Assembly: GCA_007376135.1 (NCBI GenBank)
Contig: VMFR01000002.1
Coordinates: forward strand, 28,870 to 92,869
Reading direction: 5' to 3'
From: Parcubacteria group bacterium Gr01-1014_31
GTDB taxonomy: Bacteria; Patescibacteriota; Patescibacteriia; Buchananbacterales; GWA2-38-13
Length of the DNA: 64,000 bases
The translations under genes were made by a program, and so were the position numbers. Position 1 is the first letter of the stretch; each line of letters opens with the position of its first letter. The notes beneath the pieces are model-generated. The model ran no database searches, was not told the origin of the DNA, and saw only the letters and a list, made by a program, of their open reading frames with translations. Positions 701 through 41,129 of this stretch are shown here, in pieces.

Positions 701-1927
701 TTACTTTCCCGGCACGCTGCCCGGATACAGGAGTACCTTAATTGCCTTGCCGTTCTGCAGCGCCGCGAACCCTTCGTCGTACTTGGAGAGCGGCAGGCGG
801 TGCGTGATGATGCCATGTTGAAGAATGGTCTCTCCCAGCCCCTGCGAGAACAGCTCCTGCATCAGGTGCCAGGAATCAAAGACGCGGCGGCCGAATACTC
901 CGTGGATGGTCAGCCCGCGGAAGATGACCTGCTGGGAAAAATTCAGCGGATACGTGCCGCCGGGCAGCCCCAGCAGCGTCAGTTTCCCGCCCAGCCGGAG
1001 GTTTGAGAACGCATCGTCGTAGGCGCGGTAGTTGCCCGACAGCTCAAACACCACATCCACACCATTGCCGCCGGTCAGTTCATTAACCTTGGCACGCAAT
1101 GCTTCCCGCGCGCCCGGAGCAAGCATATTAAAACAGGCGTCCGCACCCAGTTGCTTGGCGATTTCCAGTTTATCCAACGCGCCCTCGGGCAAGGCGTCGG
1201 TGCAAATAATGGGCCCCGCCCCCAATTTTTTCGCAATGGCAACCGATACTAACCCCTGCACCCCGCACCCGGTGATCATCAAACTGCGGCCGACAATGTC
1301 GGTGGACTGCACCATATGCACGCTATTGCCGATGGCGTCCATAAAGGCAATAACATCCGGCGGGATCTCACCCTTGGCGAACAGCACCACGTCCTCGGCC
1401 GGCACCAGCACGTACTCGGCGTAGCTGCCGTCCATGTGGATGCCCTGGACCTTGGTCTTTTGGCACAGGTGCCGCTGCCCAATGGAACACTGCAGACATT
1501 GCCCGCAGGTCACGTGCATCTCGGCCGTGGCGTAGAACTCCGAACGCAGCAGGTTGGGAAATTTGGGGTCGGCGGCCAGTTCCTGCGCGGAGCGGCTGCC
1601 GACGAACCGCTTGATGTGTTCATTGCCGAACGGCCGCTGGGTGACGAGGTTGGCGAGATGCTGAAGTGCCTGTATTCCCCAGTCGGACAACTCCCCGCAG
1701 AACTCGTGGCCGATGGTCACGCGCTCACCCGGCACTCCAGTCATGCTTTCCGCCAAGGCCTGGCTGGCCCGGTAGATGGATACGTCCGTGCCGCACACTC
1801 CGCTGGCGTAGACTTTGATCTTCACCTGGTCGGCGGACCCGACCTTCGGTTCGGGAACGTCTAACAACTGAAAACCTTTCGGCCACTCGCTCCCGGGCTT
1901 GGGAATCGGTTTGACAATGGCACGCAT
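701..1927 (-). CDS. tdh: L-threonine 3-dehydrogenase-like Zn-dependent dehydrogenase (MDR family), with ~60-aa insertion after the catalytic GHE motif
   Basis: 408-aa ORF. Motifs: GVCGTDVSIY, GHEFCGE, structural-Zn Cys cluster CGQCLQCSIGQRHLC, Rossmann ITGCGVQGL, C-terminal ITHRLPLSKYDEGF...KVLL like Tdh. Sits upstream of and co-oriented with kbl. Confidence 0.75.
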   Translation of the reverse strand: MRAIVKPIPKPGSEWPKGFQLLDVPEPKVGSADQVKIKVYASGVCGTDVSIYRASQALAESMTGVPGERVTIGHEFCGELSDWGIQALQHLANLVTQRPFGNEHIKRFVGSRSAQELAADPKFPNLLRSEFYATAEMHVTCGQCLQCSIGQRHLCQKTKVQGIHMDGSYAEYVLVPAEDVVLFAKGEIPPDVIAFMDAIGNSVHMVQSTDIVGRSLMITGCGVQGLVSVAIAKKLGAGPIICTDALPEGALDKLEIAKQLGADACFNMLAPGAREALRAKVNELTGGNGVDVVFELSGNYRAYDDAFSNLRLGGKLTLLGLPGGTYPLNFSQQVIFRGLTIHGVFGRRVFDSWHLMQELFSQGLGETILQHGIITHRLPLSKYDEGFAALQNGKAIKVLLYPGSVPGK

Positions 1928-2473: not shown

Positions 2474-4158
2474 CTATTCAACGGTCACGCTCTTGGCTAA
2501 ATTTCTCGGCTTGTCCACTTCGCAATTACGCAGCAGGGCGACTTCATAGGCAAACAGCTGCAGCGGCACGGCGGCCAGGATCGGGGTCAGCATCTCCAGG
2601 GTCTTGGGGATCCAAATGACGTCGTTGGCAACCTTGCCGATGTGCTCGTCGCCGGCGGTCGCGACCGCGATGACCGGCCCGCCGCGCGCCCGCAATTCCT
2701 GCAGGTTCGAAAGGCTCTTCTCATACACGCTGTCTTGCGGGGCGAAAAACACGCTGGGGAAATTGGCATCGATCATCGCCAGCGGCCCATGCTTAAGCTC
2801 GCCCGACGGGTATCCTTCCGCGTGCACGTAGGAAATTTCCTTCAACTTGAGCGCACCCTCCAGGGCGGACGGGAAATTGTACTTGCGGCCCAGGTAGAGG
2901 AAATTAGGATAGGCCTGGTAGCGTTCGGCCAGCTTGGCGATGGCGGCGCGCTGGGTCAGGATCTGCTCGATCTTGGCGGGCAGCGCCTTGAGCTCGTTAA
3001 TGATGCGATTCCCGGTCACCAGCGACATCTGCCGCTGGCGCCCGAGCGTCACGGTCATCAGCGCGAGCACCGTCAGCATACCGGTGTACGCCTTGGTGGA
3101 CGCCACGCCGATCTCCGGCCCGACGTGCAGGTACACGCCCGCATCGGTCATCCGCGCGATGGTGGAGCCAACCACATTGACGATGCCCAGCACCAGACAC
3201 CCTTTCTGTTTGGCTTCCTGGATGGAGGCGATGGTGTCGGCTGTTTCCCCGGACTGCGAAATGGCAATGACCGCGGTCCCCTCATCTAGCACCGGCTTGC
3301 GGTAGCGAAACTCCGACGCCACCATCACTTCCGTGGGAATGCCGGCGTACTCTTCCAGCATGTATTCGCCGACCAGCCCCGCGTGGTACGCCGTGCCGCA
3401 CGCGATGATGGTGACGCGTTGGACCTTGGCCAACCGCTCGGCGACCAGCTCCAGCCCGCCGAGCTTGGCCAGCCCGCGCTCCGGGATGCTCCTGCCCTGC
3501 TGGGCAGCCGCGACCGCGGCCGGCTGCTCGAAGATCTCTTTGAGCATGTAGTGCGCGTACCCGCCGCGCTCCACGTCGTCCACAGTCCACTCCACAGACT
3601 CGTGCTCGCGCTGCACCGGTTGGTGCGATGCGATAGTAACGATCTGCATGCCCGCCGGAGTAATGGTCGCCATCTCGCCGTCCTCCAGGTACACTACCTT
3701 GCTGGTGTGCTCAATGATGGGCGAAATGTCGGACGCGATGATGAATTCACCGTCGCCGACCCCGACCACCAGGGGGGAACCGTGCCGCGCGGCAATGAGC
3801 TGCTGCGGGGCGGCCGGGTCCATCACCAGCACGCCGTAGGTGCCGCGCACCTGCTGCAAACCTTTGCGCACCGCCTGCGGCAGACTGGTGCCGTCAGCTA
3901 AAATTTCTTCGAACAGGTGAGCCAAAACTTCCGTGTCGGTCTCTGACTTGAACACGTGGCCGGCCTTCTGCAGTTTCTCCTTGAGCGTCGCATAATTCTC
4001 GATAATGCCATTATGCACCACCTGCAATTGCCGCCGGCATCCGCTGTGCGGGTGCGCGTTGGCTTCCGTCGGCCCGCCGTGGGTCGCCCACCGCGTATGC
4101 GCGATGCCGACGTGCAGTATCGTGCCGGGCGTACCATTGAACCTACAATTCCGCACAT
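2474..4158 (-). CDS. glmS: glucosamine-6-phosphate synthase (glutamine--fructose-6-phosphate aminotransferase) with N-terminal lesion (frameshift plus ~50-aa deletion)
   Basis: Long ORF 2474..4228 carries GIAHTRWATHG, NGIIENY and both SIS domains through the C-terminal KPRNLAKSVTVE. The canonical MCGIVG start (ATG at 4158) is in a different frame and joins the GIAHTRW region after only ~11 codons. Confidence 0.7.
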
Positions 4159-5414: not shown

Positions 5415-6536
5415 GTGAAAACTGCGAAGACCAAAACATCTGCGTCGCGAACCACCGCACCGCAACGGCTCTTGGACGACTCCCGACGGCTCACGACGGG
5501 CGCGTTCGGCGCATTCGCCGAATCGGTCGTACAATTCGCCAACCAGTGCCGGCAAGTGGTTGCCGACACGAAGCGGCTGAAACTGCCGTCCGCGTATCGG
5601 CAGGTCGATAACGTCGTTATCAACGGCATGGGCGGCTCGGGCCTGGGCACCGACGTACTGCTCTCGGCGTTCGCGGCACACTTGCGCTGTCCCGTCGTCC
5701 TGACGCACGATTACATCGTGCCCAATTTCGTCGGTCCCCGCACCCTGTACCTGGCCTGCAGCTACTCCGGCAACACCGAAGAGGTGTTGGTGGCACTCTG
5801 GGATGCGTTTGGCCGTCGCGCCAAGATCGCGGCGATGTCGGCGGGCGGACGCTTGGCGCAAACGGCGCGCCGACTCAAGCTGCCGGCGTACATCTACGCC
5901 ACGCCGCACAACCCTTCGGGCCAGCCGCGGCTGGGCCTGGGCTACTCGATGCTCGGCGTCTGGGCGCTGCTGGGCAAGGCTGGCGTGCTCCCCTGCACCG
6001 AAAGACTGGTCGGCCAGTTCCTCGCCGCCACGGAATCGGCGTCGCGGCGGTTTTCTCCCACCGTGCGCACCCAGCGCAACCCCGCCAAACGGACGGCGTT
6101 GGGCCTGCACGGCCGGTTGCCGCTCATCATCAGCGGCAACCCGCTGTCGGGTGCGGCCCACACGTTCGCTAACCAATGCCACGAGAGCGCCAAACACCTG
6201 ACGGCGCACTTCACGCTGCCGGAGCTCAACCACCACCTACTGGAAGGGCTGAAGCACCCGGCGGCTGCCCGCACACTGGCGGCCGTGCTCATTGAATCGC
6301 CCAACGACCTGCCGGCCATCCGCCGCCGCATCGCCGTCACCGCCCAGGTCTTTGCACGCCACCGTATTCCGGTGCTCCGCTACCGCACGGCTCGGGGCCC
6401 CTGGATCGCCCAAGCAGGCGAAGCGCTCCAACTGGGCGTCTACACCAGCTGGTACCTAGCGGCGTTGAACGGCGTCAACCCGCAAGCCATTCCCTGGGTC
6501 GATTTTTTCAAACGAACACTGGCCGCACGACGGTAA
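5415..6536 (+). CDS. bifunctional phosphoglucose/phosphomannose isomerase (SIS-domain PGI/PMI family)
   Basis: GTG start at 5415 sits 6 nt after GGAGG. Motifs INGMGGSGLG and SYSGNTEE are typical of archaeal-type PGI/PMI. The upstream part of the listed ORF lacks an RBS. Confidence 0.7.
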   Translation: MKTAKTKTSASRTTAPQRLLDDSRRLTTGAFGAFAESVVQFANQCRQVVADTKRLKLPSAYRQVDNVVINGMGGSGLGTDVLLSAFAAHLRCPVVLTHDYIVPNFVGPRTLYLACSYSGNTEEVLVALWDAFGRRAKIAAMSAGGRLAQTARRLKLPAYIYATPHNPSGQPRLGLGYSMLGVWALLGKAGVLPCTERLVGQFLAATESASRRFSPTVRTQRNPAKRTALGLHGRLPLIISGNPLSGAAHTFANQCHESAKHLTAHFTLPELNHHLLEGLKHPAAARTLAAVLIESPNDLPAIRRRIAVTAQVFARHRIPVLRYRTARGPWIAQAGEALQLGVYTSWYLAALNGVNPQAIPWVDFFKRTLAARR

Positions 6537-6548
6537 TCTGCCCCCACT

Positions 6549-7211
6549 ATGGTGCGCGCAGTGCTTTTCGATCTGGATGGCGTGCTGATGGAAACGGAGC
6601 TTCAAACATTCCACTTCTACCAGGACGAACTCAAGCGGCGGTACGGCATCACGCTGTCCAATGACGCGTTCCGTTTTAAAGCTGGGCGAAAATCGGCCGA
6701 TTTCTGGTGTGACGCACTAAATGACGAACAGCGCCGGACAGTGGACACCACCGCGCTCACCAGGTATAAACGCGAACATTTCGGCGCCACGCCATCGCGC
6801 TACATCAGCCGAGTGCAGGGCGGTCCAGAACTCCTGGCAGTGCTGCGGCAAACTGGGGTTCCGCTAGCGCTCGCCTCACAAAATGAACCTTTCATGATCA
6901 ACGCAGCGGTCGACTGGCTGGGGATTCGGGATTACTTTTCCGTTATTCTCACGATCGCCGATATCAAACGATTGAAACCTGACCCCGAAATTTACCTCCT
7001 GGCCGCGGACCGGTTGAACGTACAGCCGACTGACTGTGTCGTCATCGAAGACTCACGGGACGGCGTCGGAGCGGCGAAGAACGCCGGGATGTATTGTATT
7101 GCCATTCGCCACCCCTACACACCGTTTGGACACCTCGACCGGGCCGACCGCATCGTCGAGCGTTTCACGGAACTGACCCCGACGCTGATCGCTGGAACAC
7201 TCTCACGATAA
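6549..7211 (+). CDS. HAD-IA family hydrolase (beta-phosphoglucomutase-like phosphatase)
   Basis: Motif I FDLDGVL at the N-terminus and motif IV EDSRDGVGAAKNAG. Confidence 0.75.
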   Translation: MVRAVLFDLDGVLMETELQTFHFYQDELKRRYGITLSNDAFRFKAGRKSADFWCDALNDEQRRTVDTTALTRYKREHFGATPSRYISRVQGGPELLAVLRQTGVPLALASQNEPFMINAAVDWLGIRDYFSVILTIADIKRLKPDPEIYLLAADRLNVQPTDCVVIEDSRDGVGAAKNAGMYCIAIRHPYTPFGHLDRADRIVERFTELTPTLIAGTLSR

Positions 7212-9142: not shown

Positions 9143-9994
9143 CTAAACGGACGGCGACCCCTTCCCCCACTCTTTGACGGCCTGCTCGTAAATCTCCGGA
9201 GTGCCAACATCGAACCACTTGCCCTCGAACGGAAAGCCAAAGAACCGGCCAGTCGCCGCCAGCTTCGGGAACACGTCGGATTCCAGCGATTTATCCTTGG
9301 GCGTGATGACCTCGAAAATGGCAGGGTCGAACACGCAGACGCCGGCATTAATAACGTGAGACAAGGTCTGTCCCATGGCGGGCTTTTCCTGGAAGCGCAG
9401 GATCTTTGACCCGTGCAGGGCGACCACCCCCCAGTCGGAGGACTTGGCCACCGAGGTCAAAGCGACCGTCGCGATGCCCTTGTGCGACAAGTGAAATTCC
9501 GCCAGGTCGCCGAGGTCGATCTCGGCCAGCACGTCGCCATAGTAGCAGAGGAACGGCTCATTGCCGAAAAACTTGCGCGCCTGACGCACCGGTTGCGCGG
9601 TGCCGCTCTCGGCGTCACCCTGGTCGAGGTAGCGGATAGCCACCCCGAACTTGCTGCCGTCGCCGAAGTGCTCTTTGATCTTGGCGCCCAGGCTGCCGAT
9701 GGAAATGACCAGGTCACGAATGCCGTACTGCCGCAGCAGCGCCACGCTGTGCTCGAGCAGCGGCTTGCCGGCCACGGGCAAGAGCCCCTTGGGCAGCTCG
9801 TACGTGAACGGCCGCAAGGCCTGGCCGCGTCCGCCCGCCAGGATGAGCGCACGAGAGATCCCCGGGCCAAGACTCTTGGTCAGCAGGTACTCGATGGCGT
9901 GCGAACGGTTGCGGATGCGCGAGCCGTCAATGAATTTGTCCAGCTGCTTGACCAGCTCGTTTTTCATCGTGATGGTGAGGCGGAGACGCGACAT
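9143..9994 (-). CDS. sugar-1-phosphate nucleotidylyltransferase (NDP-sugar pyrophosphorylase) with N-terminal ribbon-helix-helix-like extension
   Basis: ATG at 9994 gives MSRLRLTITMKNELVKQLDKFIDGSRIRNRSHAIEYLL, a beta-strand plus two helices like CopG/RHH. This is followed by ALILAGGRGQALRPFTYELPKGLLPVAGKPLLEH, the NTP-transferase signature (GxGxR...K). A TTGTCC-17-TAGAAT promoter lies at 10017-10045. Confidence 0.7.
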   Translation of the reverse strand: MSRLRLTITMKNELVKQLDKFIDGSRIRNRSHAIEYLLTKSLGPGISRALILAGGRGQALRPFTYELPKGLLPVAGKPLLEHSVALLRQYGIRDLVISIGSLGAKIKEHFGDGSKFGVAIRYLDQGDAESGTAQPVRQARKFFGNEPFLCYYGDVLAEIDLGDLAEFHLSHKGIATVALTSVAKSSDWGVVALHGSKILRFQEKPAMGQTLSHVINAGVCVFDPAIFEVITPKDKSLESDVFPKLAATGRFFGFPFEGKWFDVGTPEIYEQAVKEWGKGSPSV

Positions 9995-10370: not shown

Positions 10371-10507
10371 CTTGAGGGCACTATTCCCGGCATCGACCTA
10401 CTGTCGCCCCGAAGGACTATCATCGGCGCTGACAGGCTTAACTGCCGTGTTCGGGATGGGAACGGGTGTGACCCTGCCGCCGAAGACACCGGGAATACTA
10501 CCCTCAA
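10371..10507 (-). rRNA. rrf: 5S ribosomal RNA
   Basis: Minus-strand sequence GTTCCCATCCCGAACACGGCAGTTAAGCC...GCCGATGATAGT...AGTAGGTCGATGCC with terminal helix TTGAGGGTAG/TGCCCTCAAG. Ends are approximate. Confidence 0.85.
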
Positions 10508-10548: not shown

Positions 10549-13974
<3,426 letters not shown>

Positions 13975-20898: not shown

Positions 20899-21093
20899 GA
20901 CTGACCACCTCCTTCTCTATTTATTTTGAACGTGCGAAGGAACGAGTTGAGTATCCTATTGTGCTATGGTACTGCCGGATGTTGGGTATCCAACAACCTC
21001 CGAACGCGACGCTCACCCGCTAAAATTTTCCGAGGGGGAGAGTCGCCAACCCATGGCTGATCCGCCTTGGGCGGAAACTCCCATGATTGGGTA

Positions 21094-21180
21094 TGCCGGA
21101 GAGAGGACTCGCCACCGCCTTTGGCGGGGTCCCGCCTACTTTACTTAATAAATAATAGGATGGCGGGAAACCTCTACACC
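21094..21180 (-). repeat. tRNA-associated structured repeat, copy A (downstream of tRNA-Leu-TAG)
   Basis: Homologous to 39015..39100 and 26943..27043. Motifs: GGTTTCCCGCC, AT-rich loop, GTAGGCGGGACCCCGCC(A/G)AAGGCGGTGGCGA, and it ends in a tRNA 3'-end-like GAGTCCTCTCTCCGGCA. Confidence 0.6.
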
Positions 21181-21289
21181 TTGGCTAAATAAATATTCAC
21201 TGCATCCACCAACATTTGCCGAGGGGGAGAGTCAAACTCCCATGGTCTTGCGACCGCTAGCTCCTAAAGCTAACTTGCTCTCTCACCTT

Positions 21290-21373
21290 TGCCCCCGAGA
21301 GGACTCGAACCTCTAAGGGATTGCTCCCACCAGGTCCTAAGCCTGGCGCGTATACCAGTTCCGCCACGGGGGC
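21290..21373 (-). tRNA. tRNA-Leu (anticodon TAG), long variable arm
   Basis: Minus-strand GCCCCCGTGGCGGAACTGGTA...CCAGGCTTAGGACCTGG...GGTGGGAGCAATCCCTTAGAGGTTCGAGTCCTCTCGGGGGCA. Acceptor 7/7 bp, T-loop TTCGAGT, anticodon loop CTTAGGA. Confidence 0.85.
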
Positions 21374-21498
21374 AAAGGTGAGAGGGTGAATCTACCAATT
21401 TCGCCACTCCGGCACGGCATTCCCATATTGGCTGGGGCGACTGCGGTTGTCAATAAATCGGCTGCAAGGTCGTGGTAGAATATAATCGTGTGCTAACA

Positions 21499-23979: not shown

Positions 23980-24054
23980 GCGGGTGTCGTATAACGGCTA
24001 TTATGCCACCTTGCCAAGGTGGAGACGGCGGTTCGACTCCGCTCACCCGCTCCA
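23980..24054 (+). tRNA. tRNA-Gly (anticodon GCC), CCA encoded, atypical AT-rich D-arm
   Basis: GCGGGTG...CCACCTTGCCAAGGTGG...GGCGGTTCGACTCCGCTCACCCGCTCCA. Perfect 7-bp acceptor stem, anticodon loop TTGCCAA, T-loop TTCGACT. Confidence 0.8.
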
Positions 24055-26764: not shown

Positions 26765-26841
26765 GATGGCATGGTATCATATGGTTATACCATTGACCCT
26801 ACCCTTGCTTCCGGCTTCCGTATCTTTTATACTGTGTGTTC

Positions 26842-26926
26842 GCCCGGGTGGCGTAATCTGGTAGCCGCAGCTGACTTAAGATCAGCCGGGAGAAATCCCA
26901 TGTGGGTTCGATCCCCACCCCGGGCA
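26842..26926 (+). tRNA. tRNA-Leu (anticodon TAA), long variable arm
   Basis: GCCCGGGTGGCG...GCTGACTTAAGATCAGC...CGGGAGAAATCCCATGTGGGTTCGATCCCCACCCCGGGCA. Acceptor 7/7 bp, anticodon loop CTTAAGA. Confidence 0.85.
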
Positions 26927-26942
26927 TCTCGACATCAGTGTA

Positions 26943-27043
26943 GGTTTCCCGCCATCGATTAATATAGTAAATATAAGGTAGGCGGAACCTCACCGCATCC
27001 TGCGGGACCCCGGCGACGGCGGTGGCGACTCCCACCCCGGGCA
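26943..27043 (+). repeat. tRNA-associated structured repeat, copy C (downstream of tRNA-Leu-TAA)
   Basis: GGTTTCCCGCCATCGATTAATAT...GGTAGGCGG...GGGACCCCGGCGACGGCGGTGGCGACTCCCACCCCGGGCA. The last ~20 nt duplicate the 3' end of the adjacent tRNA (GATCCCCACCCCGGGCA). Confidence 0.6.
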
Positions 27044-27056
27044 TAGTATAAAACTT

Positions 27057-28166
27057 ATGAAAATACATGGAGGGAAGCGAGCGTTCCGTTATTTCATAGT
27101 CTTGGCCGCGCTGGTGTTAGCTGCCGGCTGCGCCCGCCAGCGGACGAACCGTCGGGCGGCGGCGCCTGCGGTGGCTCCAACGGCGGCGGTGGCCGCCACG
27201 CCCCAGCCAACGCCCCTGGACCAGGGGAAGATAACGGAATTCACGCTGGAGCATGGCGGCCGCACGCGCCGTTACCTGGTCCACGAACCGCTCAACGCAA
27301 AGACCGGCACCCCGCTGGCGGTGGTGTTGAGCCTGCACGGCGGCTCGGGCAACGCCGACGCCCAAGTTGCCATTAGCGGCCTCAACCTGGTCGCGGATCG
27401 TCGCGGCTTCCTTGTAGTCTACCCGGAAGGCACTGGCCCGAAATTAAAAGGAACAACGGTGGGGAGCTGGAATGCCGGCGGCTGCTGCCCGCCCGCCAAC
27501 GAACAGCAAGTGGACGACGTCGGATTCATCGCCGCGGTGCTTGACGACGTGGCAAAAAATTTCACCGTTGACCAACGGCGCATCTACGTCAGCGGCATTT
27601 CCAACGGCGCGCAAATGGCCTACCGCCTGGCGTGCGACCTCTCCGACCGCATCGCGGCCATCGCGCCGATCGCCGCCCAGGGGGTAATGCCCGACTGCGC
27701 GCCCAGCCGCGCGGTGTCGGTGTTGCACTTCCACGGCACGGCCGATCCCTGCGCCCTCTACGACGGCGGCACCTGCGGCGGCTGTTTCTCCAAATTCCTG
27801 GAAGAACTGGGGATTCCCAACGAACCGCGCACCTGGAGCTGCGAATCGGTACCGTCGTTCATGGCCAAATGGCGGGAGCGCAACGACTGCAACGACCTGC
27901 CGCAAGTCACGACCCAGCAAGGCGGGGCCACCTGCGTGACCTCACAGAAATGCCGTGGCAACTCCGAAGTGACGCTCTGCGCCATGGCCGGTATGGGGCA
28001 CACCTACCCCGGCCAGCAGTACCAACTGCCCGCCTGCGCGACCGACCCGGCCGGTTCGGTCTGCCAGCTCTACGGGCAAACCGTCGGCCCCGTCAGCAAC
28101 GACTTGGACGCCAACGAAAAGATGTGGGCTTTCTTCCAGCGCCATGCCCTGCCGCCGGGCGCTTGA
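27057..28166 (+). CDS. lipoprotein esterase of the PHB-depolymerase/LpqC family
   Basis: Signal peptide plus lipobox LVLAAGC. Nucleophile-elbow serine motif GISNGAQMAYRLA. Multiple Cys pairs. Confidence 0.6.
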   Translation: MKIHGGKRAFRYFIVLAALVLAAGCARQRTNRRAAAPAVAPTAAVAATPQPTPLDQGKITEFTLEHGGRTRRYLVHEPLNAKTGTPLAVVLSLHGGSGNADAQVAISGLNLVADRRGFLVVYPEGTGPKLKGTTVGSWNAGGCCPPANEQQVDDVGFIAAVLDDVAKNFTVDQRRIYVSGISNGAQMAYRLACDLSDRIAAIAPIAAQGVMPDCAPSRAVSVLHFHGTADPCALYDGGTCGGCFSKFLEELGIPNEPRTWSCESVPSFMAKWRERNDCNDLPQVTTQQGGATCVTSQKCRGNSEVTLCAMAGMGHTYPGQQYQLPACATDPAGSVCQLYGQTVGPVSNDLDANEKMWAFFQRHALPPGA

Positions 28167-30693: not shown

Positions 30694-30711
30694 ACCCACA
30701 CAAACTAACAT

Positions 30712-30850
30712 TTCCTTCGGGGCAGGGTGCGGTCCGACGAACGTCGGACCAATTCCCAATCGGTGGTACAGCCCACGAGGTCCGATGTACATCGGACCAT
30801 GATCCGGTGAAACTCCGGAGCCGACGGTACAGTCCGGATGAAAGAAGGAA
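30712..30850 (+). ncRNA. FMN riboswitch (RFN element)
   Basis: GGGGCAGGGTG...ATTCCCAATCGGTGGTACAGCCCACGAG...GATCCGGTGAAACTCCGGAGCCGACGGTACAGTCCGGATGAAAGAAGGAA. P1 stem TTCCTTC/GAAGGAA. Followed by a terminator and two near-identical GGGGAGG hairpins before the ribE RBS. Confidence 0.85.
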
Positions 30851-30889
30851 TCTTTCCTGATTTTTCGTAGTTTCAGGAAACCGACGAAT

Positions 30890-38938: not shown

Positions 38939-38986
38939 GGCCTTATGGTACGTTGATGGTGACGGAACGTCAACGAAATTCCCACC

Positions 38987-39014
38987 AAAAAATCCCGCCA
39001 CGGCGGGATTTTTT
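38987..39014. terminator. bidirectional rho-independent terminator
   Basis: AAAAAATCCCGCCACGGCGGGATTTTTT. Confidence 0.65.
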
Positions 39015-39100
39015 GGTGGACCCAGGGGGAATCGCCACCGCCATTCGGCGGGGTCCCGCCTACCATACTCATTAATTATCGATGGCGGGAAACCCCTCAA
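39015..39100 (-). repeat. tRNA-associated structured repeat, copy B (downstream of tRNA-Ala)
   Basis: Minus strand GGTTTCCCGCCATCGATAATTAATGAGTATGGTAGGCGGGACCCCGCCGAATGGCGGTGGCGATTCCCCCTGGGTCCACCA. The last 20 nt mimic the tRNA-Ala 3' end (GATTCTCCTTGGGTCCACCA). Confidence 0.6.
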
Positions 39101-39122
39101 AATGATACACAAATCCCCTCAG

Positions 39123-39196
39123 TGGTGGACCCAAGGAGAATCGAACTCCTACCTTCTCCATGCCATGGAGATATAATACCATTTTACTATGGGCCC
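39123..39196 (-). tRNA. tRNA-Ala (anticodon GGC) with G3:U70, CCA encoded
   Basis: Minus-strand GGGCCCATAGTAAAATGGTATTATATCTCCATGGCATGGAGAAGGTAGGAGTTCGATTCTCCTTGGGTCCACCA. T-loop TTCGATT. The G3:U70 Ala identity pair is present. Confidence 0.8.
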
Positions 39197-39356
39197 GGGT
39201 CCACCACTGAGGGGATTGCCGTGCAAACTGAATTTTCAATGCGAACTTTTCCAAACCAAAAGCGTAATACCACTTTACTATGGGCCCGCGAGCAGATTGT
39301 TTTCGAAGTGCCAGTACCGGCGATAATACCCCGCCGCCGCGCCGTCGTCAAGGCAA

Positions 39357-40337: not shown

Positions 40338-41129
40338 CTAGCCTTGCGGCTGCACCAACGACAACAATTTCGCGTGCAGCGCGGGCACTGCGGCAACGAG
40401 ACTGGTCGAGGCAAGTGTCCATGGCTTTCCGTCCATATCCGTCACGGTGCAGCCCGCCTCCCCCATCAGCAGCACCCCGGCCGCATAGTCCCACACGCCG
40501 CCCGAGCTGCGGGAAAACGCCCAGTCGCGCCGTCCGTCGGCGACATACATCGCCGCCACCGCAGCGGAACCAAACATACTCAGCCACAACGGCTCCCTCG
40601 CGGCGGAGGCGATCAGTCGCTGGAGCGACGCCAGTTTGTTGGCCCGCAGGCCGGCTCCGGTGCAGCCGTAGCTGTACACCCAGTCCTTGGTGGCCGCACA
40701 ATGCACGGGTTTGCCGTTGCAGGTCGCCCCGCGGCCGCGTTGCGCCAGGTACAGCTTGCCGTTCGGCGGGTCGGCAATGGCCGCGTGCTGCAGCACCCCG
40801 TTCTTGGCCACGGCCACCATCACGCCGAACAACGGCGTGCCCGTAGAAAAATTGCGGGTGCCGTCCAGCGGGTCCACCAACCACAGGTACTCGGCATCCT
40901 TCTGCCAGTCCGGCTGCTCCTCGGAAACGATTCCGTGCGAGGGAAATTTCTTCTTGATGGCCTGGACAAGCAGCCGGTTGGCGGCGAGATCGGCCTCGGT
41001 CACCACGTCGGCACGATTTTCCTTGGTGTACTTCACGCCGGACCGGCCGAAGCGGCGGGAAACCAAACGGCTCGCCTGCCGGGTGATGTCCGCGGTGAAT
41101 TTTGCCAACGTATCGGTCATCCGATCCAT
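40338..41129 (-). CDS. inositol monophosphatase (IMPase/SuhB) family phosphatase
   Basis: Motifs EEQPD, WLVDPLDGT and WDYAAG. Start taken at MDRMTD. Overlaps the upstream GT-C gene by 13 nt. Confidence 0.75.
   Translation of the reverse strand: MDRMTDTLAKFTADITRQASRLVSRRFGRSGVKYTKENRADVVTEADLAANRLLVQAIKKKFPSHGIVSEEQPDWQKDAEYLWLVDPLDGTRNFSTGTPLFGVMVAVAKNGVLQHAAIADPPNGKLYLAQRGRGATCNGKPVHCAATKDWVYSYGCTGAGLRANKLASLQRLIASAAREPLWLSMFGSAAVAAMYVADGRRDWAFSRSSGGVWDYAAGVLLMGEAGCTVTDMDGKPWTLASTSLVAAVPALHAKLLSLVQPQG

Follow-up and report, generated by a model that had tools for sequence, protein, structure and literature searches.

An RPE-like double-hairpin element beside tRNA genes of a Parcubacteria contig, probably mobile and associated with in-situ tRNA gene replacement

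Why should three different transfer RNA (tRNA) genes on one stretch of DNA each be followed by the same short structured repeat, and why should this repeat end in a likeness of the very tRNA that it follows? The question is raised by a window of 64 kb (60% GC), the whole stretch of DNA analysed here, from contig VMFR01000002.1 of Parcubacteria group bacterium Gr01-1014_31. A preliminary description of this window had placed homologous repeats behind tRNA-Leu(TAG), tRNA-Leu(TAA) and tRNA-Ala(GGC), and had offered as explanations a miniature tRNA-targeting integrative element, attachment-site (att) scars left by a larger element, or conserved structured trailers of tRNA transcripts. The conserved double-hairpin core of these repeats is named E in the following. 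Probably, E is a non-autonomous mobile double-hairpin DNA element, akin to the Rickettsia palindromic elements (RPEs) and the mitochondrial double-hairpin elements (DHEs), which occurs together with in-situ replacement of tRNA genes. This reading draws on the observed anatomy of E, its distribution and target motif, its occurrence in both orientations and within coding sequences, its absence in relatives, and the nesting of resident tRNAs between remnants.

The repeats themselves are readily recovered. ARAGORN calls five tRNAs in the window, four of which are backed by Rfam (Table 1). The additional call, a tRNA-Ser(GCT) at 27453-27540 (+), lies within an esterase open reading frame (ORF; 27057-28166, Esterase_PHB domain), has no Rfam match and is probably a false positive. 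When the whole window was scanned with zero mismatch, GGTTTCCCGCC and GGCGGTGGCGA were present 3' of tRNA-Leu(TAG), tRNA-Leu(TAA) and tRNA-Ala; a fourth GGTTTCCCGCC, at 41054, falls within a coding region and is a chance match. A covariance model, R1, was trained on 20 copies of E, including those at Leu(TAG) and Ala in the window, whose scores are therefore partly circular, and was searched with filters off. It returned exactly three copies of E, the remainder being noise or reverse-strand echo. The motif scan and R1 thus agree on the three co-oriented repeats first described, and the R1 search of the window also bears out that tRNA-Gly at 23980 has no such element.

E is composed of TCCCGCC, an AT-rich loop of 15-40 nt, GGCGGGA, CCCCGCC, a second loop of 3-30 nt and GGCGG(T/G)GG, in this order from 5' to 3'. 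These parts form two abutting GC-clamped hairpins with near-identical 7-bp stems (TCCCGCC/GGCGGGA and CCCCGCC/GGCGG(T)GG) and variable loops. For instance, the copy at tRNA-Leu(TAG) is written TCCCGCC, an AT loop of 25 nt, GGCGGGA CCCCGCC, AAA and GGCGGTGG. Overall, copies are 48-91 nt long; the cores in the window measure 56-79 nt (n = 3), and each has the same orientation as its tRNA. Two subfamilies can be distinguished, one with the GGCGGTGG end and a loop 2 of 3-5 nt (window, metagenome-assembled genome (MAG) E14_metabat.bin.16, JAUSGZ01, hereafter E14, and some Patescibacteria), the other with a GGCGGGG end and a long loop 2. The 5-9 nt that precede each window core are also tRNA-derived, being a T-stem 5' strand plus TT (TAGAGGTT, GTGTAGGTT, GAGGGGTT), and 3' of each core the tRNA resumes with CGA, the T-stem 3' strand and the acceptor 3' strand. 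Because tRNA sequence lies on both sides of the core, E in the window is an insertion into the T-loop, between T55 and C56 (TT^CGA), of a partial tRNA copy. After each core stands a direct repeat of 18-21 nt, with 83-90% identity, of the T-loop-to-3'-end segment of that tRNA. The terminal likeness to the tRNA was hence correctly seen as a duplication; the view that the repeat imitates the tRNA gives way to another, as the flanks of E prove on alignment to be remnants of older tRNA copies and not mimics.

How far the older copies can be traced is best seen at tRNA-Leu(TAG). The acceptor 3' strand of its 3' remnant, CTCCGGC, is that of tRNA-Leu(TAG) in L135 (GCA_028712155.1, 'Patescibacteria group bacterium'), a syntenic relative with an FBPase 80% identical to that of the window. 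A 5' remnant lies upstream of the resident gene, and the two remnants pair mutually and match the L135 tRNA, not the resident. The acceptor stems show compensatory changes, with GCCGGAG/CTCCGGC in the remnants versus GCCCCCG/CGGGGGC in the resident. Because both acceptor strands of the resident differ from those of the remnants, the whole gene and not its 3' half was replaced, by an allele that is now nested in the older gene. A perfect inverted repeat of 18 nt (21280-21297 / 21367-21384) brackets the resident. As for the two decayed 3'-end modules reported earlier at this locus, they exist as extra copies, but are remnants of yet another tRNA-Leu(TAG) allele, the third (fragments A and C, Table 1); the two form a 77% direct repeat that reaches 14 nt beyond the tRNA end. 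With several remnants stacked here, the earlier suggestion of repeated events at this site holds.

The tRNA-Ala locus has a similar structure. Its T-stem is GGGG/CCCC in the remnant and GGAG/CTCC in the resident, both strands being changed; a promoter-like site (39351-39323) lies upstream of the 5' remnant, and the resident is bracketed by a 21-nt perfect inverted repeat (39112-39132 / 39197-39217). At both Leu(TAG) and Ala, the working tRNA is a replacement allele nested between the 5' and 3' remnants of an older gene, and the nested tRNAs are predicted, with reasonable probability, to use the old promoter and terminator. The stem of the Ala terminator reuses the TCCCGCC/GGCGGGA motif of E, and the terminator contains CCACCA together with an inverted copy, TGGTGG. 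The brackets at Ala (21 nt), Leu(TAG) (18 nt) and tRNA-Pro of locus L004 have a common build, in which the tRNA 3' end and the trailer recur in the leader as their reverse complement. Such inverted repeats round resident tRNAs could be processing stems or cassette ends.

At tRNA-Leu(TAA), the gene leader (26816-26836) is complementary (76%) to 27042-27062, the sequence just after the remnant. Because of this complementarity, the distal copy at 27026-27043 is the original 3' end of the gene. The inserted DNA comprises 117 nt (26909-27025), made up of a new 3' end, a 12-nt spacer, GTGTAGGTT and E, and its insertion at the T-loop displaced the original 3' end. E copy 2 carries an extra internal segment of about 21 nt and is orthologous to a copy in E14 (L014 4583-4658), from which its loop 1 differs by 1 nt; hairpin 2 is duplicated in this shared copy.

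Table 1. Coordinates of tRNA genes, copies of E and tRNA remnants in the window, and of in-frame copies of E in protein genes of other loci
Feature	Position	Strand	Details
tRNA-Leu(TAG), resident	21289-21374	-	ARAGORN; Rfam, 57.6 bits
E copy 1, at Leu(TAG)	21112-21168	-	R1 64 bits; in training set
E left flank, old tRNA-Leu(TAG) T-stem 5' strand + TT (TAGAGGTT)	21169-21176	-	Identical to resident TAGAGGTT ahead of T-loop C56
E right flank, old tRNA-Leu(TAG) 3' remnant (CGAGTCCTCTCTCCGGCA)	21094-21111	-	83% direct repeat of 21290-21307
Old tRNA-Leu(TAG) 5' remnant, about positions 1-23 (GCCGGAGTGGCGAAATTGGTAGA)	21390-21413	-	Aligns to 5' end of L135 tRNA-Leu(TAG); complementary to CTCCGGC
Fragment A, anticodon stem to 3' end, 5'-truncated, no hairpin insert	21217-21271	-	T-arm GGGAG/CTCCC; acceptor 3' CCTCGGC
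Fragment C, T-arm to 3' end, degenerate hairpin (CCGCCCAAGGCGG) in T-loop	21028-21085	-	Same allele as A; weak R1 match 21062-21074
tRNA-Gly(GCC)	23980-24054	+	ARAGORN; Rfam
tRNA-Leu(TAA), resident	26842-26926	+	ARAGORN; Rfam, 51.4 bits
E copy 2, at Leu(TAA)	26947-27025	+	R1 32.7 bits; outside training set
E left flank, T-stem 5' strand-like + TT (GTGTAGGTT)	26938-26946	+	Compare resident TGTGGGTT
Original 3' end of tRNA-Leu(TAA) (CGACTCCCACCCCGGGCA)	27026-27043	+	27026-27044 is an 89% direct repeat of 26909-26927
tRNA-Ala(GGC), resident	39123-39196	-	ARAGORN; Rfam, 61.7 bits
E copy 3, at Ala	39035-39090	-	R1 59.5 bits; in training set
E left flank, old tRNA-Ala T-stem 5' strand + TT (GAGGGGTT)	39091-39098	-	Pairs with remnant CCCC
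Old tRNA-Ala 3' remnant (CGATTCCCCCTGGGTCCACCA)	39014-39034	-	90% direct repeat of 39123-39143
Old tRNA-Ala 5' remnant, positions 1-23	39265-39288	-	96% direct repeat of 39174-39197
Terminator, 18-bp perfect palindrome (CCACCAAAAAATCCCGCC/GGCGGGATTTTTTGGTGG)	38982-39019	-	Directly after Ala remnant
In-frame E, triosephosphate isomerase (tpiA)	L027 348-401	antisense	54 nt
In-frame E, MnmA	L078 13925-13978	antisense	54 nt
In-frame E, class II aminoacyl-tRNA synthetase	L132 ~9598-9657	sense	60 nt
In-frame E, unannotated ORF	L130 ~1480-1527		48 nt

Beyond the window, the exact pattern was scanned for in one genome per species and gave 14 stretches, nine of which are chance matches in GC-rich coding DNA. 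Each of the five true copies stands 3' of a tRNA, which in E14 is Gln, Cys or Leu(TAA) and in two Patescibacteria MAGs Pro or Ala, and then runs into the 3' end of that tRNA. A metagenome scan with the pattern TTCCCGCC-N15-40-GGCGGGACCCCGCC produced at least 120 matches, and the counts that follow rest on the matches listed. Altogether, more than 100 sites in metagenomes and MAGs carry E, among them sites in Patescibacteria of 41-43% GC whose loci share with the 60% GC window nothing but E and its flanks. After in-silico removal of E, ARAGORN detects a tRNA in no more than 3 of 107 cases; the intact version of that tRNA stands instead at a distance of 16-170 nt from the E-bearing remnant. Two orders are found. 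Type U consists of the intact tRNA, a spacer, 5-25 nt of left homology, E, and the part of the tRNA that extends from the insertion site as far as its 3' end; it includes all three window copies, E14, L004, L007, L023, L037, L048, L083 and L094. Type D consists of the terminal part of the tRNA up to the site, E, 6-14 nt more of the tRNA, an AT-rich spacer and the intact tRNA (about 25 co-oriented and about seven antisense cases). A partial same-strand copy within 220 nt accompanies 45 of the 92 tRNAs with enough flank, and 31 of these 45 are beside an E-type hairpin. At L007, all three tRNAs of this Patescibacteria contig (Arg CCT, Ala CGC and Ala GGC) are followed by a hairpin pair and a 3'-end copy (5506-5600, 5880-5960 and 6639-6710); the Arg module has a variant stem with a compensatory change, TCCCGCA/TGCGGGA, and both Ala remnants encode CCA, which the resident genes do not.

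The junctions of E are well defined. Among 103 distinct junctions, position -2 is T (75) or C (23), i.e. 98 of 103, position +1 is C (62) or A (30), and A prevails at +2 (68) and +3 (62). The target of E is approximately YT^CRA, with precise ends and a specific orientation. As to context, 21 of these junctions lie in the T-loop in sense (GGTT^CRA), 17 in the D-loop (TAGCT^CA), nine in a Glu-type anticodon loop (TTTT^CAT) and seven in the T-loop in antisense (ATTT^GAACC); the other 49 include non-tRNA hairpin loops (L057, L076/L096 and L131) and in-frame sites in protein genes. About half of the E sites are therefore in single-stranded tRNA loops (T-loop 55/56, D-loop 12/13 and the Glu anticodon loop), and at least 15 tRNA species carry E, namely Leu, Ala, Gln, Cys, Pro, Glu, Val, Gly, Arg, Thr, Phe, Ile/Ala, Asn, Met and Ser. 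Four copies lie in frame within protein genes (Table 1). All four have a length divisible by three, are stop-free and add 16-20 residues. Several copies may be present on one contig. Because E stands in both orientations and within coding sequences, several times per contig and with precise ends, it acts at the level of DNA and not as a tRNA-trailer RNA.

With this distribution at hand, the integrative explanations can be judged. Tyrosine integrases cross over in the T-loop or anticodon loop of tRNA genes and leave att scars. Such scars resemble the E loci in that an intact tRNA is joined by a 5'-truncated copy (T-stem or anticodon stem to 3' end), that the distal copy is the original one and that scars may be serial. 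The E loci differ from them in having only 12-120 nt plus E between the repeats, no integrase, many tRNAs involved, frequent mirror images on the 5' side, whole-gene allele replacement, and a conserved hairpin pair in the crossover loop itself. Direct repeats of the tRNA 3' segment are found at all three window loci, whereas neither targeting of a single tRNA nor an adjacent integrase is. The proposal of a scar of a classical integrase was abandoned, since D-loops, anticodon loops, antisense T-loops, non-tRNA hairpins and in-frame coding sites hold the core of E as well. A more refined form, which is unlikely, holds that a tRNA 3' part, the spacer, the T-stem 5' strand and E together constitute a miniature integrative element, a tiny and possibly single-stranded circle. 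A recombinase acting in trans would integrate it at TT^CGA, with E as a folded recombination site comparable to integron attC; the element would bring the replacement 3' end, and the remnant would be the displaced original end. Consistent with this, E at T-loop 55/56 occupies the classical crossover zone, the left homology is confined to the 5' strand of the T-stem (5-9 nt), which would suit an attP core arm, and the distal copy is the original at Leu(TAA) and at tRNA-Gly of E14. Moreover, in 13 of 13 Type U loci the homology between working gene and remnant stops -1 to +4 nt from the tRNA 3' terminus, as expected if the two copies differ in origin, while the stacked remnants at Leu(TAG) and L113 resemble serial integrations and mirror-image units, Type D, are present at tRNA 5' parts. 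However, no tRNA piece is carried where E lies in D-loops, anticodon loops, antisense T-loops, non-tRNA hairpins and coding sequences, and each of the at least 15 tRNAs affected would need its own matching element. Furthermore, no recombinase recurs near the copies or is present among the window ORFs scanned, the Leu(TAG) resident differs on both acceptor strands so that a swap of the 3' half cannot account for it, and the resident trailer pairs perfectly with its own leader, which is unexpected of an imported trailer. What remains of the miniature element first proposed is inserted, lineage-specific DNA at tRNAs that is bounded by 3'-end duplications and has no integrase inside; its core is not tRNA-specific. 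The inserted DNA (117-200 nt) is indeed ORF-free, and no integrase was found among the 40 window ORFs scanned. Nor is every copy 3' of a tRNA, since metagenomic copies also lie upstream of tRNAs, antisense to them, in non-tRNA hairpins and in protein genes.

Comparison with relatives bears on the age of E and on the idea of a conserved trailer. The relatives were reached through the neighbouring FBPase gene; P0010 and P0011 were non-syntenic, and the contigs of P0001 and P0002 too short or non-syntenic. As the preliminary description had anticipated, the same tRNAs exist without the element, for tRNA-Leu(TAG) of L135 has none and L143 (FBPase 81% identical) possesses a tRNA-Leu(TAA) without any. 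E14, which is 90% identical to and colinear with the window across 7.6 kb, has the Leu(TAA) copy too. The comparison points clearly to a recent, lineage-specific gain, and as relatives have the same tRNAs but no element, an anciently conserved trailer is ruled out. In L135, 8560-8660 (-) holds a different two-hairpin insert (ACCCGGCACC..GGTGCCGGGT, ACCCCAAACC..GGTTTGGGGT), followed by a copy of tRNA-Leu(TAA) from the anticodon loop to the 3' end; the 5' strand of the L135 Leu(TAA) gene pairs better with the acceptor of this remnant (G1-C72) than with the resident 3' strand (G1-U72).

It is very improbable that E is a functional structured trailer RNA, i.e. a processing or termination module or a tRNA-like decoy acting on the co-transcribed tRNA. 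All three window copies are co-oriented with their tRNA, that at Ala lies between the promoter-like site and the terminator, and at some loci most tRNAs carry the module (three of four in the window, three of three in L007). The stems are strongly conserved; the 3' strand of hairpin 2, which was outside the metagenome search pattern, is present and paired in 99.4% of 1346 cells from 97 distinct copies, and one copy folds better than shuffled sequence (z = -2.6). Against this, the other two of the three folds are no better than shuffles, the loops are unconserved, and only five cells in 1346 are compensatory, the stems being nearly invariant. The stem invariance is partly a matter of ascertainment, and the covariation test cannot separate constraint on RNA from constraint on single-stranded DNA. 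E is missing at the same tRNAs of close relatives, and its copies in antisense, upstream of tRNAs, in non-tRNA hairpins and in protein genes are difficult to reconcile with a trailer. No Rfam family covers E in the window at gathering score, and nothing was matched at an E-value of 10 or below over 20900-21450 or of 1 or below in ten loci, save tRNA, rRNA, RNase P and weak sub-gathering chance matches (miRNA, Plastid-ycf2). A family of Rho-independent terminators, an outcome that the preliminary description had named as refuting its view, is rejected as well, since no T-run follows hairpin 2 and a terminator scan makes its call only after the Ala remnant (38982-39019) and none at E on the tRNA strand. 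The homology to tRNA ends stands on alignment.

Nested tRNA genes are not confined to the window. While tRNA-Gly(GCC) of the window is a plain gene with a terminator, its version in E14 is about 310 nt longer (L014 1311-1692 versus 23980-24054). The old tRNA-Gly of E14 is broken at position 24 and in the T-loop, and the old pieces are still on their original flanks; a new intact copy is enclosed by fragments 1-24 (with a single CCCGCC...GGCGGG hairpin after it), 1-52 and 57-76, and the unit with the new copy is bounded by a 17-nt perfect inverted repeat (TCCCACACCTTTTCTCC/GGAGAAAAGGTGTGGGA). L004 has two such regions (2395-2717 and 3160-3500). In one, an insert divides the old tRNA-Pro(TGG) in its anticodon loop (1-34 and 37-76). 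The ends of this insert form an E-like hairpin, GCCCCGCC-CCAGG...CCTGG-T-GGCGGGG, whose loop holds a complete new tRNA-Pro; the inverted repeat here (2479-2499 / 2559-2579) has 21 nt and 95% identity. In the other, the old tRNA-Gly(TCC) shows a different double-hairpin insert in the anticodon loop, a hairpin in the T-loop, and a new intact copy. In these reduced genomes, tRNA genes appear to have been repeatedly disrupted and replaced in place, sometimes by different alleles. Five further loci (L021, L039, L044, L020 and L113) contain 5' parts of tRNA-Thr(CGT) whose D-loop carries E; another insert, unrelated to it, follows GTTGGT, and a long group I intron-like one follows the anticodon loop; in L113, three such 5' fragments are stacked upstream of the intact gene.

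Rather unlikely, yet worth stating, is a wider interpretation, namely a self-compensating system directed at tRNA genes, of which E and other hairpin-bounded units related to it would be what can be seen. Units without a promoter of their own, each with a complete replacement tRNA that is flanked by perfect inverted repeats or placed in the loop of an E-like hairpin, would enter a loop of the cognate tRNA gene and make use of the promoter and terminator already there. Remnants of the old gene would be left on the 5' and 3' sides, with E marking and occupying the broken loops. Support for it comes from tRNA-Pro of L004 in the old anticodon loop, tRNA-Gly of E14 in the old T-loop, and the nesting of Ala and Leu(TAG) in the window.

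Under the preferred explanation of E as a mobile double-hairpin element, movement would take place at the DNA level through a trans-acting factor that recognizes folded single-stranded DNA. Two routes may be envisaged. The first is a hairpin-specific enzyme in trans, with the closest chemistry in the HUH Y1 transposases of IS200/IS605 and of repetitive extragenic palindromes (REPs) with their REP-associated tyrosine transposases (RAYT), of which several defining features fail here. The second is template switching during replication via the conserved TT...CRA loop flanks. The partial tRNA duplications would arise in the same events as E, and only events that leave or create one intact tRNA would survive. 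Insertion of E into a single-copy tRNA gene would be lethal, so that E would be seen only in truncated copies beside a working gene.

An explanation without any enzyme of its own is quite improbable. According to it, tRNA cloverleaf DNA or hairpins stall replication forks, template switching similar to microhomology-mediated break-induced replication follows, and E is a hairpin module copied along via short flank homology (TT...CRA, T-arm or D-arm motifs) as a by-product of replication or repair. This would suit the flanks of E, which have an excess of direct repeats even at non-tRNA sites (33% of copies above the 95th percentile of an unpaired control), the break-points at loops and tRNA termini, and the inverted copies of tRNA 3' ends beside tRNAs (Ala leader and palindromic terminator of the window, L004). 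It would also suit L068, where a left flank from the D-loop is joined to a right flank from the T-loop, the shuffling of hairpin 1 and hairpin 2 modules among copies, and the L027/L065/L078 subfamily, in which the same extra flanks (AATTTTCAAT...TTAAATTTT / CAATTTTCAA) accompany E at unrelated sites. Additionally, the Ala remnants of two distant genomes have the flanking stem GGGG/CCCC in common. However, such a by-product would hardly have precise ends and an invariant core across phyla of very different GC; insertions in coding sequences are without any flank homology, and the orientation-specific YT^CRA suggests a reaction defined by an enzyme.

Several observations weigh against a simple mobile element. 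No autonomous version, no excision and no pair of filled and empty sites at the same locus was found, so that the case for mobility comes from distribution only. Most matches were found by an exact pattern, which biases the family diversity and the non-tRNA fraction. Loop 1 is entirely different between copies of one genome while the stems are invariant, which resembles long-term stem constraint and not recent bursts. Full-length tRNA copies practically never contain E, and the remnant is broken at a distance of no more than 5-25 nt from E, neither of which would be expected had E simply entered pseudogenes that were already there. The duplications end at tRNA termini, for which selection alone provides no explanation, and E lies exactly at the crossover position of T-loop-specific integrases. 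Also unexplained are the frequent allele differences between remnants and residents and the perfect inverted repeats that bracket the residents. It is the break position, the end of the homology, the allele differences and the inverted repeats that keep the miniature integrative element and the tRNA-cassette interpretation alive.

Searches for a responsible enzyme gave no match. Clustering of the ORFs (at least 120 aa) that lie up to 4 kb from about 100 E copies revealed only conserved housekeeping neighbours as recurrent, with no integrase or transposase, and Pfam identified neither in the 40 of 53 window ORFs that were scanned (at least 100 aa). No long version of E and no TnpA (Y1) or TnpB ORF was met in 650 kb of loci or among the scanned window ORFs, and no TnpA, TnpB or RAYT lies near the roughly 100 E copies or among those ORFs. 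A phage element is not indicated, as viral contigs gave no match to E. Other identities were considered and rejected. A tRNA intron, for which the U at exon ends and the G at the insert end would speak as in group I, is contradicted by the fact that excision almost never restores the tRNA, by antisense copies, by a size of 48-91 nt that is too small, and by the lack of an Rfam match. Split tRNAs with a bulge-helix-bulge motif do not apply, because the loci are bacterial (bacterial rRNA, RNase P) and intact tRNAs are adjacent. Retro-copies of mature tRNA in the form of 5'-truncated complementary DNA would explain why remnants of L004 and L007 have CCA and their resident genes have none, but the Leu, Cys and Gln remnants are without CCA, as are the new 3' ends at E14 tRNA-Gly and window Leu(TAA). 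A target-site duplication with E between its two copies is not what is seen, E being inside one duplicated copy. Classical miniature inverted-repeat transposable elements are a poor match, as terminal symmetry is limited to stems of 6-7 nt, no duplication of constant length is seen, and the repeats in the flanks vary and are offset from one another. Finally, REP sequences and bacterial interspersed mosaic elements (BIMEs) were dismissed, since E starts with TCCCGCC, has no GTAG or CGTC tag and sits in tRNA remnants and coding sequences.

Among known systems, two functional classes are closest. RPEs, reportedly described by Ogata et al. in 2000, are Rickettsia palindromic elements. Like E, RPEs and the Coxiella QMITEs are short, non-coding, strongly self-complementary selfish repeats without their own transposase, which occur in intergenic regions, in RNA genes and in frame in housekeeping proteins, where only a length divisible by three survives. 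E is half the size of RPEs, has two tandem hairpins instead of one long palindrome and shows no apparent sequence relationship to them in an informal comparison. It further differs in its defined target YT^CRA, its bias to tRNA loops, its link to partial tRNA duplications, and its Patescibacteria-like hosts instead of Rickettsia. Allomyces mitochondrial DHEs, GC clusters of yeast mitochondria and repetitive hairpin-forming elements of sponges are 26-80 nt long and have two GC-rich hairpins. Like E, which is probably mobile, DHEs move by an unknown mechanism, have sites in spacers, variable regions of RNA genes and coding regions, and form subfamilies by module shuffling; they are organellar, whereas E resides in bacterial chromosomes of at least two deeply different genome types (60% versus 41-43% GC). 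To our knowledge, tRNA-loop targeting and nested tRNA remnants have not been described for DHEs.

The palindrome-associated transposable elements (PATEs) of IS200/IS605 and the REP/BIME-RAYT system, both with HUH Y1 enzymes acting on single-stranded DNA hairpins, likewise have near-identical end hairpins, insert orientation-specifically 3' of a short T-rich motif, lack a regular target-site duplication of fixed length, depend on an enzyme in trans (as E would) and prefer DNA that can become single-stranded. E has two end hairpins and a YT^ target, and a third of its copies have irregular flank duplications. In IS200/IS605, however, the hairpins are subterminal and cleavage occurs 10-20 nt away, while the stems of E abut the junctions; REPs are extragenic with a GTAG/CGTC tag, while E is untagged and also within genes. 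As E is short, self-complementary, dispersed and non-coding, and is present in spacers, RNA genes and in-frame coding sites, it has the features of the RPE-like or double-hairpin class, which is a functional class and not a sequence family. E is a new bacterial variant of this class, and its link to serial in-situ tRNA replacement is unusual and unexplained. No description of E was found in the literature searched, in which the term 'double-hairpin element' was met only in mitochondrial papers. A paper on tRNA introns of Patescibacteria (PMC13011429) makes no mention of 'hairpin', 'palindrom', 'pseudogene' or 'short insertion'. Fragments of tRNA genes have been reviewed elsewhere (PMC9897764).

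The window holds further RNA features. Its 23S rRNA gene (10550-13971, -) measures 3.4 kb versus 2.9 kb in the model and contains a group I intron at 11584-11814 (Rfam, 57.8 bits), and a 5S rRNA lies at 10385-10493. Taken with the labels of the relatives, these features suit a Patescibacteria-like lineage in spite of the 60% GC. An ordinary flavin mononucleotide (FMN) riboswitch (30709-30853, +; 97 bits) is located upstream of riboflavin genes.

The recognition of E has consequences for annotation, as it accounts for many odd tRNA fragments and pseudo-tRNAs in MAGs of Patescibacteria-like bacteria. The in-frame copies in tpiA, mnmA and an aminoacyl-tRNA synthetase gene imply that E also shapes proteins. 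Moreover, E is a bacterial counterpart to the mitochondrial DHEs and the RPEs, whose mechanism of mobility has been open for 25 years; because the target of E (YT^CRA) is defined, its ends are precise, and naturally filled and empty sites are plentiful, this mechanism could become testable. The replacement of tRNA genes is also relevant to how tRNA genes turn over, to horizontal transfer and to the stability of genomes within a major radiation that is uncultured. The cassette system, if true, would represent a novel type of mobile element, one that causes the tRNA alleles of Patescibacteria-like bacteria to turn over serially and in situ.

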